A stretch of 64,000 nucleotides of DNA from Escherichia phage vB_EcoM_G29. Below, piece by piece: positions 372 to 56,949 of this stretch (its first letter is position 1; each line of letters begins with the position of its first letter). The translations under genes and the position numbers were made by a program. The stretch is from sequence record MK327940.1; one strand, given 5' to 3'. Below the pieces are notes generated by a model, which saw only the letters and a list, made by a program, of their open reading frames with translations, searched no databases and had not been told where the DNA came from.

Positions 372-430
372 TTTATCCCTCCAAGTAACTGTGAATATAC
401 TATCACAATTCTAGGAGAAAGTAAACCACT

Positions 431-961
<531 letters not shown>

Positions 962-3871: not shown

Positions 3872-3899
3872 ATAATATCACGTTTTAATAGATTGTAAA
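3872..3899 (-). promoter_or_regulatory. early sigma70-type promoter for the 3251..3844 gene
   Basis: Minus strand: GTTTACA, 16 bp, TGaTATTAT. Confidence 0.55.
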
Positions 3900-4254: not shown

Positions 4255-4292
4255 ATAGGCTCATAATATCTCAATCATGAGCCTATGTAAAC
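4255..4292 (-). promoter_or_regulatory. early promoter with inverted repeat bracketing the -10
   Basis: Minus strand: TTTACA (4287-4292), 17 bp, TATTAT (4264-4269); inverted repeat ataggctcat/atgagcctat at 4255-4264 and 4277-4286. Confidence 0.6.
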
Positions 4293-4599: not shown

Positions 4600-4650
4600 A
4601 TAGTACCATGGAAGAACAGAGATGTAAACAGTTTTGTGAAAAAATTTTTA
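4600..4650 (-). promoter_or_regulatory. early sigma70-type promoter for the 4293..4556 gene
   Basis: Minus strand: AT-rich upstream element, GTTTACA (4623-4629), 17 bp, TGgTACTAT (4600-4605). Confidence 0.6.
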
Positions 4651-6039: not shown

Positions 6040-6330
6040 TTGTCGGGGTTCCACCTGCTAAGGCAAGTGTTTGTACGAAACGCCGGGATTCGAACCCGGT
6101 TATTAAGTAGTTGACGCTACTCAATATTTTAAAAGGCCATATCTCGACCATATCCGAACGTTCCGTCAAAAACGCTACTCGGCTTACGGCAAAGATATTT
6201 CCTCGAATCGATAATTCGGTGCGCCGTTTCTGCTGTGATAGTAAAGAGCCAGAACACAGTAAAACTGTGGGAGGAAACTATACTCCAGGGAACATCAGTC
6301 CGACGACTTACCGGTAGCGACCCGGTTTCT
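6040..6330 (-). ncRNA. candidate small stable RNA(s), by analogy to T4 species 1/2 (rnaC/rnaD)
   Basis: Non-coding gap downstream of the tRNA cluster on the same strand; contains a tRNA-like T-arm (ccgggattcgaacccgg) but no complete cloverleaf. Confidence 0.25.
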
Positions 6331-6680
6331 TAATATTCTTTTAAAGAATCAATATATTCACGGCGTTTACGCCACAAATCAATTGCTTCATACGCGGATT
6401 CAGCATTTCGAATTAGCCGGCATTTATGTAAAGACTTATGATTTTGATATTGTGTAGATAACGGAATTGTATCTAAAAGGTCTTTACGATCAAAATATTC
6501 GTAACCATCTAAACCAAATGAACGATTTTTGAGAAATTGCCAATGACCATATTCGTTTTCGACATAAACATAATCTGCATGCTGATAAAGCAAATTAATT
6601 ACACGTTCAGAAATAACAGTATCATTATGATTAAAATAGAATGTTAAATCATGAACTACTAAATAAACATTACCTTTCAT
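6330..6680 (-). CDS. hypothetical protein
   Basis: 116 aa track ORF with GAGGAAA ribosome-binding site, immediately downstream of tRNA-Arg. Confidence 0.55.
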   Translation of the reverse strand: MKGNVYLVVHDLTFYFNHNDTVISERVINLLYQHADYVYVENEYGHWQFLKNRSFGLDGYEYFDRKDLLDTIPLSTQYQNHKSLHKCRLIRNAESAYEAIDLWRKRREYIDSLKEY

Positions 6681-6698
6681 ATTTTCCTCACTTATAAT

Positions 6699-6774
6699 TG
6701 GTCGAGGCAGTAGGGATCGAACCTACGACCTAGGACTTAGAAGGTCCTTGCTCTTCCTTCTGAGCTATGCCCCG
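6699..6774 (-). tRNA. tRNA-Arg (anticodon UCU)
   Basis: Cloverleaf folded by hand; anticodon loop cuUCUaa; T-loop TTCGATC; encoded CCA. Confidence 0.85.
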
Positions 6775-6778
6775 TAAT

Positions 6779-6854
6779 TGGGGTGACCGATGGGAGTCGA
6801 ACCCATGACTACGAGAATCACAATCTCGAGTTCTACCAACTGAACTACGGCCAC
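6779..6854 (-). tRNA. tRNA-His (anticodon GUG)
   Basis: Hand fold; anticodon stem cgaga/tctcg, loop uuGUGau; discriminator C73; no encoded G-1. Confidence 0.75.
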
Positions 6855-6968
6855 ATTAATACCTACTCCAACAATCAAGATGTCTTCACACGAAATTAAG
6901 AGAAGAGTGATCAGTTCAACCCCTATAATCGCGTCAAGTAGATATTAATGTGACAGTTGTCACAAATT

Positions 6969-7043
6969 TGGCGGACGTGATAGGATTCGAACCTATAACC
7001 AATCGCTTAACAGGCGATCGCTCTGCCATTGAGCTACACATCC
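6969..7043 (-). tRNA. tRNA-Asn (anticodon GUU)
   Basis: Hand fold; anticodon stem atcgc/gcgat, loop cuGUUaa; encoded CCA. Confidence 0.8.
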
Positions 7044-7047
7044 AAAT

Positions 7048-7134
7048 TGGTGGGGAGTGGTGGAGTCGAACCACCCGAGTCGCAATGACAATGGATTTAC
7101 AGTCCACACCGCTACCTCTACGGGATAACTCCCC
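7048..7134 (-). tRNA. tRNA-Tyr (anticodon GUA), long variable arm
   Basis: Hand fold; 87 nt; anticodon loop cuGUAaa; encoded CCA. Confidence 0.75.
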
Positions 7135-7143
7135 AAATTAATT

Positions 7144-7218
7144 TGGTGGCCCTGGGTGGAATTGAACCACCATCTGGCGATTATGAGTCGCTTGCTTGAA
7201 CCTTCCAGCTACAGGGCC
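7144..7218 (-). tRNA. tRNA with CAU anticodon (elongator Met or lysidine-modified Ile)
   Basis: Hand fold; anticodon loop cuCAUaa; T-stem ggtgg/ccacc; position matches the T4 tRNA-Ile slot. Confidence 0.75.
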
Positions 7219-7219
7219 T

Positions 7220-7295
7220 TGGTGCTGATTGACGGAATCGAACCGCCGACCTTCTCATTACAAGTGAGTTGCTCTACCTACTGAGCTAAATCAGC
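7220..7295 (-). tRNA. tRNA-Thr (anticodon UGU)
   Basis: Hand fold; anticodon loop cuUGUaa; encoded CCA. Confidence 0.85.
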
Positions 7296-7300
7296 AAAAC

Positions 7301-7390
7301 TGGCGGAGGCGATAGGATTTGAACCTATGAGTCGCCGGAGCGACTGCCGGTTTTCAAGACCGGTGCATTAAACCACTCTGCCACGCCTCC
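7301..7390 (-). tRNA. tRNA-Ser (anticodon UGA), long variable arm
   Basis: Hand fold; 90 nt; anticodon stem ccggt/accgg, loop cuUGAaa. Confidence 0.85.
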
Positions 7391-7392
7391 AG

Positions 7393-7466
7393 TCTCCGTG
7401 GCAGGATTTGAACCTACGACATTCTGCTCCCAAAGCAGACGCTCTACCAAACTGAGCTACACGGAG
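7393..7466 (-). tRNA. tRNA-Pro (anticodon UGG), CCA not encoded
   Basis: Hand fold; anticodon loop uuUGGga; 3' end abuts the tRNA-Ser 5' end, as in the T4 Pro-Ser dimeric precursor. Confidence 0.85.
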
Positions 7467-7476
7467 TAAATTAAAT

Positions 7477-7550
<74 letters not shown>

Positions 7551-7555
7551 AAATT

Positions 7556-7642
7556 TGGTGCGAGAAGTGGGACTCGAACCCACAAGGAAATCATTCCGCA
7601 GCATTTTAAGTGCTGTGCCTTTACCAATTTGGCCATTCTCGC
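7556..7642 (-). tRNA. tRNA-Leu (anticodon UAA), long variable arm
   Basis: Hand fold; anticodon stem cagca/tgctg, loop cuUAAaa. Confidence 0.85.
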
Positions 7643-7643
7643 G

Positions 7644-7716
7644 CTGGGAATAAAGGACTCGAACCTTTGCATCCTGGAATCAAAATCCAGTGCCTTACCA
7701 ACTTGGCTAATTCCCA
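7644..7716 (-). tRNA. tRNA-Gln (anticodon UUG), CCA not encoded
   Basis: Hand fold; anticodon stem ctgga/tccag, loop uuUUGau; one nucleotide from the tRNA-Leu 5' end (Gln-Leu dimer). Confidence 0.85.
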
Positions 7717-7813
7717 ATTATTAACAAAGGCTCTTAAGCAAGAACCCTTGATGATAGAGGGTATTAATCAGTGCGATATGAGTTAATAATAACAAATAAT
7801 TCTTAAAGCATAT

Positions 7814-8101
7814 TTACCATTTATAATAATACATATTTACGATGCATTCAAGACCCAAAGGATTCTTGAAAATATCATATTCAAGAGGACCTTTTTCTGT
7901 TTCAATAAAGAAATCAAAATTTACTGTATTAAATTTACGTTCTTCCTTCACTAATTTAACTTGAGAAGATGAACGGTCAATGTAAACCTTTTCAACTTCA
8001 AAACATGTTAAAATGCCATAATCATCAATCAAAGCTTTAGCCGCGTCTTGATCATATTTATATCCATTTTCAATGGATGATACTTTCGCATAAAGAATCA
8101 T
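7814..8101 (-). CDS. hypothetical protein
   Basis: 95 aa track ORF in the operon upstream of the tRNA cluster. Confidence 0.55.
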   Translation of the reverse strand: MILYAKVSSIENGYKYDQDAAKALIDDYGILTCFEVEKVYIDRSSSQVKLVKEERKFNTVNFDFFIETEKGPLEYDIFKNPLGLECIVNMYYYKW

Positions 8102-8103
8102 TA

Positions 8104-8502
8104 TCAGCCTTCATCAACAATAGTGTGAGTATTAGCATTTACGATTTGCCACCAATCAAAGCGATTAGAATCCATCGGTTTGTTTTCATTTTCTTTGATA
8201 ATGTCACGGAGTTCATCTTCAGAGAATGCTTTAGCGATTAAATCGGTATACCCACCACGTGGATAATAATTATCACCTGCAAACAAAAGGAAATTTACCT
8301 TCCCGGAAGGAACATACGCTTCCTTAGGATACTTGTTTCCTGCGTGGTCAACCACTTCAATATAACGGTAAGGAATATCGGTTCTTTCAACCCATTGCCA
8401 TGCCGCCGCAGGGGAATCGAAAGCATCTACACCTAAACGATTATCTTCATCTTTAGACGGATTATTTTCGTAATCCGCATATACATAATATTCAACGTTC
8501 AT
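8104..8502 (-). CDS. hypothetical protein
   Basis: 132 aa track ORF; stop abuts the next start. Confidence 0.55.
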   Translation of the reverse strand: MNVEYYVYADYENNPSKDEDNRLGVDAFDSPAAAWQWVERTDIPYRYIEVVDHAGNKYPKEAYVPSGKVNFLLFAGDNYYPRGGYTDLIAKAFSEDELRDIIKENENKPMDSNRFDWWQIVNANTHTIVDEG

Positions 8503-8687
8503 TATTCACCTTTAGAAATTTTATCCATAACAATAGCAATTAAACCAATTAAAAATGCTACTACAAGTGAAAAAACATTTTCTGCCGTAGTCAATAATCC
8601 GCATATAAATCCAACAAACATTGAAAAACTGAAAGCGGAAGCAGAAATTGCAATAGCAACATTTCGAATTAATTCACAACGTTTCAT
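8502..8687 (-). CDS. hypothetical small membrane protein
   Basis: 61 aa, mostly hydrophobic; GAGGAG ribosome-binding site; early promoter with inverted repeat upstream. Confidence 0.5.
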   Translation of the reverse strand: MKRCELIRNVAIAISASAFSFSMFVGFICGLLTTAENVFSLVVAFLIGLIAIVMDKISKGE

Positions 8688-8706
8688 TTTATTCTCCTCA
8701 GTAGTA

Positions 8707-8745
8707 GATAGGGTAATAGTATCACTACCCTATCTAAAAGTAAAC
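8707..8745 (-). promoter_or_regulatory. early sigma70-type promoter with inverted repeat bracketing the -10 (PeSL-like cassette)
   Basis: Minus strand: GTTTAC, about 17-18 bp, TGaTACTAT; inverted repeat gatagggta/taccctatc at 8707-8715 and 8726-8734. Confidence 0.6.
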
Positions 8746-8979
8746 TTATTTTTTACGAAAAATTGATTTATTTTCTGCTGCCCATTTTTCAATAACTGCA
8801 GCAGGACCAGTAACAACAATTTTATCACCGTAATCTTCTGCGGCGAGTTGACCGAAATTATCTAATGCATCACGAAGAACTCCATGAGGCATTTCACCCA
8901 TTTTATCTTTCTTGCCAGTGTAAATAAACTCAACTTTTACATCAGCAGTTTCAGCAATAAATTCTTGGTAAGTTTTCAT
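8746..8979 (-). CDS. internal head protein-like (capsid-targeting sequence MKTYQEFIAE)
   Basis: Start placed at the ATG giving MKTYQEFIAETADV... (77 aa); exact match to the T4 internal-protein targeting motif. Confidence 0.7.
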   Translation of the reverse strand: MKTYQEFIAETADVKVEFIYTGKKDKMGEMPHGVLRDALDNFGQLAAEDYGDKIVVTGPAAVIEKWAAENKSIFRKK

Positions 8980-9005
8980 TTTGATTTCCATTTGGTTTTG
9001 TTTTG

Positions 9006-9050
9006 ATAGGGTAATAGTATCACAACTAAAACCCTATGTAAACAACTTTG
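9006..9050 (-). promoter_or_regulatory. early promoter with inverted repeat (PeSL-like cassette)
   Basis: Minus strand: TTTACA (9037-9042), 17 bp, TACTAT (9014-9019) with TGa; inverted repeat atagggt/accctat. Confidence 0.6.
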
Positions 9051-9055
9051 TGAAA

Positions 9056-9313
9056 TTATTTTAAATCTTCTAATCGTTTCTTCATCTTAGAACCATTTTT
9101 AGCAATTTCTCCTGCATCGGAGCATAATGCTAAAAGTGCTTTAACTTTAGTTTGGTCTCCTTTAAAAGATGAAGGATCGACCGCAGCAGCAAGTTCTTTA
9201 ATACGAGAGAAAAGACGCTCAGCTTCAGCTAAAGCCATTCCAAGCTTTACTTCCATACCGTGGGAAGATTCAGTGATAGTAGTTTTTGTAGCAAACTCTT
9301 TGAAAGTTTTCAT
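9056..9313 (-). CDS. internal head protein-like (MKTFKEFATK N-terminus)
   Basis: 85 aa track ORF; N-terminus resembles the capsid-targeting sequence; ipI-equivalent position beside 57B. Confidence 0.6.
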   Translation of the reverse strand: MKTFKEFATKTTITESSHGMEVKLGMALAEAERLFSRIKELAAAVDPSSFKGDQTKVKALLALCSDAGEIAKNGSKMKKRLEDLK

Positions 9314-9335
9314 TTTTATTTTCCTAATTAATTTT

Positions 9336-9380
9336 GATGAGGTAATAGTATCACTACCTCATCAGTATGTAAACAACTTT
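9336..9380 (-). promoter_or_regulatory. early promoter with inverted repeat (PeSL-like cassette)
   Basis: Minus strand: TTTACA (9368-9373), 17 bp, TACTAT (9345-9350); inverted repeat gatgaggta/tacctcatc with paired changes relative to the 8707 copy. Confidence 0.6.
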
Positions 9381-9386
9381 GTGAAA

Positions 9387-10071
<685 letters not shown>

Positions 10072-10072
<1 letters not shown>

Positions 10073-10797
10073 TATAGTACCTTTAGCGTATTTTTAATTT
10101 TAGAAAAAAGTTCTTCAAGAGAACCATCGTTTGTAATTACTAAATCGCCATCACGAATTGGCAATCCAGCTTCTGTAATATGTGTATCATTGGATTTTTG
10201 ACCAGGACGAACTACATGAATTACTGTAGCACCCATCGCCCTAGCCGCATCCATTTCATGATCTTGACGGGTATCAGGAACGATATAATAATCATAACCT
10301 GAGTTAAATTTATCAAGATAATCTAAAGCAAATAATTTTATCCAGTACATGCGGTCGAAGTTATTAACAATCAAATCCGTACCTAGGGCTTGCATCAGAC
10401 GACGGACTGACCATTGATCTTCAATATTATTTATAACGTCAATAATCTTGTTAAATGCTACGGAATTAACTGATTCTTGTCCTTCGTCATCAAAAACAAA
10501 CACACCTTTAATTGGGCTTTTACCATTAAGATAGCAAAATGCTTGTTCCATAATCGTGATTACTTCTAATTTAGTTAGATTTAAATTAGTCTCACGATCA
10601 TAGTCAATTCCTTCAAACTCTTTACGAGTTAAGCAAGGATAGTCGGTATTTGCTGCAAATACTCCCCATGCATAAGCCAATGCATCCTTAATAGGACCAG
10701 CAAGTTGGTATTTAACTGCAGAATAATTGCTCATGATAAAATCAGCAGTAGTATCTTTTCCACTACGCTTTACACCGCTTAAAAAGATTAGTTTCAT
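10072..10797 (-). CDS. 1: deoxynucleoside monophosphate kinase
   Basis: 241 aa; P-loop GVKRSGKDT; T4 gene 1 length and synteny. Confidence 0.92.
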
Positions 10798-56889: not shown

Positions 56890-56949
56890 TTTGTGTTCCT
56901 CATGTTATGTCAGTAAGACTACTATAACACAACACGAGGGACTTGTAAA

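Follow-up and report, generated by a model that had tools for sequence, protein, structure and literature searches.

Three T-even PeSL-like promoter–hairpin cassettes as probable recombination joints in the internal-protein locus of a T4-like phage

Why should three consecutive genes of a T4-like phage each be preceded by the same promoter, with an inverted repeat wrapped around its −10 box whose arms differ from copy to copy in a paired way? The question arises in Escherichia phage vB_EcoM_G29 (sequence record MK327940.1), within a 64,000-nucleotide stretch analysed here as a whole (the window, to which coordinates refer unless another source is named). A sequence-only reading of it had proposed promoter/inverted-repeat modules upstream of three early genes and selection on the hairpin itself. 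We find that the three copies, A, B and C, are probably paralogous T-even PeSL-like cassettes that punctuate the internal-protein (IP) locus, each combining a predicted sigma-70 early promoter, a hairpin that we propose to be an insulator at the RNA level and an apparent recombination joint.

The cassettes lie within the internal-protein locus

The region 8400–9900 is 100% identical to Escherichia phage vB_EcoM_G4500, in a search that matched 778 phage records, and the window is identifiable as that of a T4-like phage (Tequatrovirus). Read along the minus strand, gene 1, 57A and 57B come first, then cassette A ahead of ip5, cassette B ahead of ip6 and cassette C ahead of a trna.4 homologue; ORFs of 132 and 95 amino acids follow, and after them a 12-gene tRNA cluster. 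The individual features are as follows:

9387..9845, minus strand: gene 57B (PHROGs match to phrog_755, E = 5e-68; same position as T4 57B)
9335..9398, minus strand: cassette A, with an A/T-rich tract and the 57B stop codon (9398..9375), −35 GTTTAC (9374..9369), TG (9353..9352) and −10 TACTAT (9350..9345)
9056..9313, minus strand: ip5-like internal head protein gene, 85 amino acids (phrog_3499, E = 1e-49; ip5 in MG781190)
8998..9067, minus strand: cassette B, with the 33-bp repeat (9067..9035), −35 (9043..9038) and −10 (9019..9014)
8746..8979, minus strand: ip6-like internal virion protein gene, 77 amino acids from MKTYQEFIAE (phrog_8111, E = 1e-52; ip6 in MG781190)
8705..8745, minus strand: cassette C, with −35 GTTTAC (8745..8740) and −10 (8721..8716), the Shine–Dalgarno sequence GAGGAG coming next
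8502..8687, minus strand: trna.4 homologue, 61 amino acids, MKRCELIRN... (phrog_1692; T4 trna.4 matches in position and length)

The annotation of MG781190, a 99.7%-identical phage, runs ip5, ip6, then Trna.4, Trna.3 and Trna.2. The equivalent T4 frame is 57B, ipI, trna.4, trna.3, trna.2 and the tRNAs, with ip5 and ip6 of this phage standing where T4 has ipI. Judged from these sequence matches, the three cassettes lie within the polymorphic IP locus that extends from 57B to the tRNA region; A and B precede internal-protein genes, ip5-like and ip6-like respectively, and C precedes the trna.4 homologue. Gene 57B is the conserved left anchor of this locus; trna.4, the conserved right anchor, is found in most 57B-anchored loci of relatives. 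The ip5-like product begins with MKTFKEF, a capsid-targeting leader, and ends in EDLK, and the ip6-like frame is open from 8991 (81 amino acids). The downstream genes, called early in the sequence-only reading, are predicted to be so from promoter type only.

A shared early-promoter module

Each cassette is intergenic, following the stop codon of one gene and preceding the Shine–Dalgarno (SD) sequence and start codon of the next. All three share a layout of A/T-rich tract, GTTTAC, 17-bp spacer and TGATACTAT, with the −10 enclosed by an inverted repeat. A promoter consensus scan returned TTTACA, a spacer of 17 bp and TACTAT with TG upstream, bearing out the spacer length and TG-extended −10 first read from the letters. 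The −35 had been given as GTTTACA in every copy; GTTTAC is indeed common to the three, but cassette C continues as GTTTACT. Within the 64-kb window GTGATACTATTACC occurs exactly three times, on the minus strand at 8712, 9010 and 9341, and allowing at most two mismatches yields five matches against 0.45 expected. The pattern GTTTAC-N15-TGnTAnnnT occurs six times in the 64 kb, every one on the minus strand, against 0.03 expected.

Similarity between copies extends into the flanking genes. The reported 33-bp identity between 9035–9067 and 9366–9398 is exact and covers the final codons (DLK, stop) of both 57B and ip5. It forms the core of a 71-nt A/B repeat (86% identity), and weaker homology runs on into the first codons, encoding the capsid-targeting leader, of both IP genes. 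Cassette A is base for base the same as the T4 sequence upstream of ipI.

Seven positions past the −10, at least 90% of cassettes have an A. Because of this conservation and of sigma-70 geometry, we place the predicted +1 at the conserved A at 9338 (A), 9007 (B) and 8709 (C). Each cassette would then be a sigma-70-dependent, T4-type early promoter whose transcription starts at this A, within the 3′ arm of the inverted repeat.

Arm pairing is selected but dispensable

The two arm pairs that drew attention to the locus are present on the minus strand, gatagggta (8734..8726) with taccctatc (8715..8707), and gatgaggta (9363..9355) with tacctcatc (9344..9336). They had been described as a 7–9-bp inverted repeat bracketing the −10; the bracketing stands, but the length falls short, as RNA folding gives stems of 13 bp (A) and 14 bp (C), G·U pairs included, closed by an AUAC loop. 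The hairpin arms of cassette A span 9364..9352 and 9347..9335 around a perfect 9-bp core, and the perfect inverted repeat of cassette C is 11 bp (8736..8726 and 8715..8705). The cassette B hairpin is interrupted, with 17 bp over 9045..8998 in a register unlike that of A and C; its 7-bp core pairs atagggt (9037..9031) with accctat (9012..9006), and the −35 region is base-paired to the transcribed leader as well. Folding energies are −20.5 kcal/mol for A over all 76 nt folded (z-score −4.7), the hairpin by itself giving about −17, −18.1 kcal/mol for B (z-score −3.65) and −18.5 kcal/mol for C (z-score −3.5), and no shuffled sequence was equally stable in any of the three cases.

Taken alone, the paired difference that separates A (GA/TC) from C (AG/CT) would be thin evidence. 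We assembled a comparative set from T4, 36 IMG/VR loci anchored on gp57B, and loci retrieved with promoter-only patterns that are blind to the arms. In 45 unique promoter-defined cassettes, the mean minimum free energy (MFE) is −13.2 kcal/mol for native halves and −7.6 kcal/mol for swapped halves; none of 2,000 permutations reached the native mean, the best attaining −9.1 kcal/mol. In a gapless alignment of 38 of these 45, taken with no hairpin filter, 64% of cells are paired in the 13-bp register of cassette A; with the partner slid, the share is 32–54%. Double-sided changes affect 10 of its 13 stem pairs, and its covariation score of 0.255 (versus 0.08–0.15) was reached by none of 500 shuffles.

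On the wider scale, a helix spans the −10 in 121 of 482 unique pattern hits, against 15–34 after shuffling of the variable positions, and the 121 carry 98 distinct 5′ arms. Two registers predominate, with the symmetry axis between the first two −10 bases in 51 cassettes and three bases upstream in 16. In T4 the strict early-promoter pattern matches 31 times, always on the early strand, and 14 of these sites have such a helix; the window holds further cassettes with unrelated arms (4291..4263, 425..397 and 56949..56921). Across these sequences the conserved feature is the structure, not the arm sequence. The idea that paired arm changes are under selection thus gains from the larger comparative data (swap test, covariation and roughly 98 arms).

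This pattern bears directly on whether the inverted repeat might be an operator, bound by a dimeric regulator that shuts off the promoter. Dyad symmetry bracketing the −10 is classical repressor geometry, yet complementarity of the arms is conserved while their sequences are not, and several registers and loop sizes occur; we give this explanation almost no credence. A sequence-specific operator was rejected outright, the arms not being conserved in sequence.

The pairing can be lost. Relatives L137 and L146 join a C-type 5′ arm to an A-type 3′ arm, which breaks the stem; L142, L145 and others have weak stems at otherwise intact promoters; and the window promoters at 4628..4600 and 3899..3872 have no stem. 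Because hairpins are broken or absent in these cases, the hairpin appears to be common and selected yet dispensable, not obligatory. Unpaired substitutions in relatives, which the sequence-only reading had named as counter-evidence, thus occur in part, as in the chimeric L137 and L146 stems.

Such chimaeras also invite the thought that the palindrome has no selected function and is kept by hairpin-templated quasi-palindrome correction, or by gene conversion among paralogous cassettes. Cassettes clearly swap halves, promoters without a hairpin exist, and one templated event would be expected to produce just such an adjacent double change as distinguishes A from C. Against this, a stem persists with about 98 distinct arms in divergent phages and is present at about half of the early promoters of T4; moreover, DNA-templated correction would restore perfect pairs, so that the surplus of G·U relative to A·C mismatches reported below is unexpected. 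Upkeep by mutation is in our judgement very unlikely.

Possible RNA-level and DNA-level roles of the hairpin

Compensation by itself does not tell RNA-level from DNA-level selection. The position of the predicted start within the 3′ arm has a consequence, however: RNA initiated by the cassette itself could not fold into the hairpin, so that an RNA hairpin would be possible only in read-through transcripts. These would come from 57B, from the previous cassette or from a late promoter within gene 1. Our best guess is that the hairpin serves as an intercistronic insulator or 3′-protecting structure in such read-through RNA. A stem-loop just 3′ of the upstream stop codon would mark, stabilize or attenuate the upstream message.

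Mismatches retained inside the stems lean towards an RNA-level role. At fully variable positions, interior transition mismatches comprise 15 distinct G·U cases and 4 A·C cases (two-sided binomial ~0.02). These figures come from a recount on a larger set with semi-constant positions excluded, as a first count had been dominated by one recurrent −10 position. The excess weakly favours an RNA role; it is modest (19 events), and strand-biased mutation could account for it. The sense strand folds better than the antisense strand in 29 of 45 cassettes (mean MFE −13.2 versus −11.9), a weak asymmetry due in part to constant G·U pairs from the TG/TAnT bases. Single-sided variants retain wobble pairs, as in tatctcatc of L152 and gatgggg of L122.

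These counts also weigh on the main DNA-level alternative, in which the inverted repeat forms a hairpin or cruciform on the −10 that is cut by a structure-specific nuclease and so targets recombination to the cassettes. SbcCD-like gp46/47 and endonuclease VII are examples of such nucleases, and T4 encodes gp46/47 and gp49. If the structure acted in DNA, G·T and A·C should be equally frequent, where 15 and 4 were observed; the better folding of the sense strand also speaks against it. Crossovers do fall inside cassettes, even in the loop or core, leaving chimeric arms, and Arbiol 2010 (PMC2839356) speculated on a DNA-binding protein that targets the stem-loop for recombination; still, 20–110 bp of plain homology is enough for T4 recombination. 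Likewise, 51 cassettes have their axis of symmetry fixed on the A/T-rich −10, but the constant TG...TAnT bases supply free inner pairs that can explain this. We consider action in DNA unlikely.

A further lean towards RNA comes from sibling cassettes (window 425..397, L123, L144 and T4 62797) that have GGAG in the 3′ arm, paired with the spacer, an arrangement that makes sense only in RNA. In these siblings the extended stem would sequester the downstream SD, so that only locally initiated mRNA is translated. The stems of A, B and C end at 9335, 8998 and 8705, with the SD 10–18 nt beyond, so translational masking is not applicable to them. An SD-sequestering hairpin of the gene e or soc type was rejected for all three, whose 3′ arm contains neither SD nor start codon.

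A more far-reaching reading, which we hold to be less likely than not, is of a sense-strand RNA element confined to read-through transcripts, which may separate or insulate these from local messages and would not be a terminator. Read-through might be discriminated by 3′-end protection, processing, pausing or, in the extended variants, SD masking. The covariation, the fixed symmetry axis and the bias of G·U over A·C are compatible with a read-through RNA element. If this is true, about half of T4-type early promoters would carry built-in insulation against read-through messages. The role of the hairpin could also matter for the design of insulated gene cassettes in engineered T4-like phages. 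An Rfam search found no family at or above the gathering score, the sole hit being a chance snoRNA (E = 0.75).

The stems lack features of intrinsic terminators

For the PeSLs of RB49/phi1, the stem-loop has been claimed to be an intrinsic terminator or attenuator that isolates each gene cassette, and the stem-loop of one G/C-rich RB49/phi1 PeSL lowered lacZ expression about as much as rrnB T1 (PMC2839356). In favour of such a role, the hairpins of A–C are stable (−18 to −20 kcal/mol) and come directly after stop codons. They have no U-tract, though: the 3′ flanks are A-rich, not U-rich (aaaattaatt, aaaacaaaac and tactactgag), relatives conserve the flank ATCAAAACAAA, and an intrinsic terminator scan of 7700–10200 returned no terminator-like site. 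We accordingly rejected a Rho-independent terminator in the usual sense of a G+C-rich hairpin followed by a U-run. T-even stems are, besides, weaker and A/T-rich according to Arbiol 2010 (PMC2839356). Because of the A-rich flanks and the empty scan, the published 'terminator' label does not appear directly transferable to T-even stems.

Late expression provides a second line of argument. The late promoter TATAAATA does not occur in 8400–9900; the closest copy on the coding strand lies within gene 1 (10435..10428). Transcripts for late expression of the virion proteins would then have to cross the stems, an argument against efficient termination, and a terminator would cut off late read-through that is to reach the IP genes and tRNA cluster. 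Termination or attenuation that isolates each gene is thus quite improbable. Strong attenuation by an RNA insulator would seem similarly counter-productive, as the IPs are needed late and the locus has no late promoter of its own.

Relation to known PeSL and masking elements

The element is already known at the IP locus: going by the later papers that describe it, it was reported in 1994 and named PeSL-like in 2010 and 2014. As summarized in Arbiol 2010 (PMC2839356), Repoila et al. 1994 (EMBO J 13:4181) found PeSL-like sequences at two highly variable T-even IP loci, built on T4 early promoters and with weaker, A/T-rich stem-loops. Arbiol 2010 (PMC2839356) regards these T-even elements as analogues, not homologues, of the RB49/phi1 PeSLs. 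The latter are composed of an A/T-rich tract, −35/−10 and a stem-loop, with the stem mostly between the boxes or overlapping the −10, and cluster in hyperplastic regions at indel boundaries (PMC2839356). Comeau 2014 described PeSLs for PST/T4 as well, gave TTTACW-N17-TAYWAT as the consensus there and cited the IP locus again. As far as the T-even elements are described in that summary, they resemble the present cassettes in locus, phage group, T4-type early promoter and A/T-rich variable stems; both flank interchangeable IP genes with a capsid-targeting leader, and nothing essential differs in the features given there.

The suggested match to PeSL cassettes holds at the level of the sequence definition, all its parts being found (A/T-rich tract, −35/−10, stem-loop over the −10, SD and start codon). 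Repeats beside variable non-essential genes, a further PeSL feature, are seen at the IP locus and in the window copies at 4291, 425 and 56949. With the PeSLs of RB49/phi1, PST/T4 and nt-1/KVP40, the cassettes have in common a composite, repeated intergenic module at indel or replacement boundaries; a stem over the −10 is among the commonest phi1 layouts, as here, and TTTACW-N17-TAYWAT fits the cassettes. A figure legend for PST places the stems just upstream of the promoter (Comeau 2014), whereas the present ones bracket the −10. RB49/phi1 stems are polyG/polyC beside a near-perfect sigma-70 consensus promoter, and one has terminator activity; the stems here are A/T-richer, with no U-tract. 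A strict RB49/phi1-type PeSL was rejected, the arms gatgaggta/gatagggta and promoter GTTTAC/TACTAT differing from polyG...polyC with TTGACA/TATAAT.

Masking hairpins of T4 e, soc, 49 and I-TevI follow a related principle: the promoter lies inside the DNA of the 5′ strand, and long transcripts fold where local ones do not (PMC3014915). The logic of folding in read-through only is alike, and the sibling cassettes also put GGAG in the 3′ arm. Those hairpins, in contrast, use late promoters and mask the SD/AUG, whereas A–C have early promoters and a stem 10–18 nt before the SD.

To these accounts the present analysis adds arm covariation quantified over ~100 variants, a stem locked on the −10 with the predicted start in its 3′ arm, and the absence of terminator features together with a modest RNA-type mismatch bias.

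Cassettes as probable recombination joints

Cassette positions, proposed from the sequence alone to mark sites of gene shuffling, coincide with boundaries of gene gain, loss and replacement (junctions in T4, L153, L152, L146 and L137; e–denV). L153 carries 57B (100% identical), B, ip6, C and trna.4, equal to the window with the 331-bp unit of A and ip5 removed from between the 33-bp repeats. T4 has cassette A, the unrelated IP gene ipI and then, upstream of trna.4, a junction made of the B 5′ half and the C 3′ half, with the B/C switch point within the shared gtgatactattaccctatc. A single different IP gene lies between A′ and C′ in L152, and L137 has a tandem (slipped) duplication of the core gatactattacctcatcaa. 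These natural variants (T4, L153, L152, L146 and L137) match the products expected from crossovers inside cassettes.

A cassette together with the codons of the capsid-targeting leader would flank each IP gene with 20–110 bp of portable homology, and homologous recombination between cassettes would delete, insert or replace IP genes. The products are presumably made by the T4 general recombination machinery. T4 recombination occurs at even shorter homologies, and the cassettes are not mentioned in the eLife paper on T4 evolution (PMC9391042). As with integron cassettes and Botstein–Campbell linkers, conserved flanks let single genes swap at a dedicated site (Arbiol 2010, PMC2839356); unlike integrons, the locus has no dedicated integrase or attC-type site, and general homologous recombination is presumed.

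Internal proteins are injected anti-restriction effectors, and the GmrSD-type enzyme that is blocked differs among Ip1, Ip2 and Ip3 (PMC12373910). The cassettes are apparent joints at which phages swap host-range IP genes. At a second IP locus, T4 has e, a cassette, ipIII, ipII, a cassette and denV, where this phage has e, a single cassette and denV, the IP gene being absent. Among 36 relatives, the number of leader-bearing ORFs (IP genes) per IP locus ranges from 1 to 5.

Apparent cassette rearrangement and gene ends

Cassettes B and C, early promoters with a hairpin around the −10 that flank the ip5- and ip6-like genes, have the appearance of mutual block permutations (9043..9006 versus 8745..8707). 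The common TGATACTATTACCCTATC is preceded by TTTTAG-ATAGGGT-AG in C and by ATAGGGT-TTTAG-TTG in B; relative to C, the 5′ arm of B is shifted 6 nt upstream, with pairing to the same 3′ arm retained. In L137, a relative locus carrying a chimeric cassette (C-type 5′ arm, A-type 3′ arm), the cassette core gatactattacctcatcaa is present twice in tandem, 3′ of the chimeric 5′ arm (L137:5185-5235). This duplication looks like recombinational slippage, a process described for degraded promoter-early stem-loop cassettes (Comeau 2014).

Both the ip5-like gene (9056-9067) and 57B (9387-9398) close with gat tta aaa taa, which encodes DLK and the stop, because the cassette repeat extends into the coding sequence of each. 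In one of these two proteins, the C-terminus was probably overwritten through recombination. Inside 57B lies a perfect 9-nt tandem duplication (9671-9688, ATGGAACAT twice on the plus strand), encoding VPYVP.

The second internal protein locus

397-470, minus strand: e–denV junction, with e, a single hairpin-bearing early-promoter cassette, then denV directly

The second T-even internal protein (IP) locus is devoid of IP genes in vB_EcoM_G29. At the same site (65414-66498), T4 has ipIII and ipII bracketed by two cassettes, whereas the window has one cassette and neither gene. The lysozyme encoded by e ends in ...GTWDAYKNL, and the denV Shine-Dalgarno sequence (cttGGAGgg) pairs with the 3′ arm of the cassette.

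Further early promoters

4291..4263, minus strand: early promoter, hairpin bracketing the −10
56949..56921, minus strand: early promoter, hairpin bracketing the −10
4628..4600, minus strand: member of a second repeated early-promoter family, without hairpin

The two hairpin-bearing promoters have arms unrelated to those of cassettes A to C, and T4 has counterparts of both. One uses the arms ataggctcat/atgagcctat (−18.2 kcal/mol); the other directly follows the alt gene (−17.5 kcal/mol). The hairpin-less family is near-identical in its 3′ part, TGGTACTATACAACTATC, and has six members in T4 (at 167086, 163673, 146875, 70696, 55384 and 27080), with AACT after this part in five of those six. It could be another source of dispersed homology.

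The tRNA cluster

6073-6166, minus strand: tRNA-Lys call (ARAGORN)

ARAGORN calls twelve tRNA genes on the minus strand (6073-7716), compared with eight in T4, and no segB homing-endonuclease gene lies among them. The tRNA-Lys call, unusually long at 94 nt and set apart from the cluster, may be spurious or interrupted.
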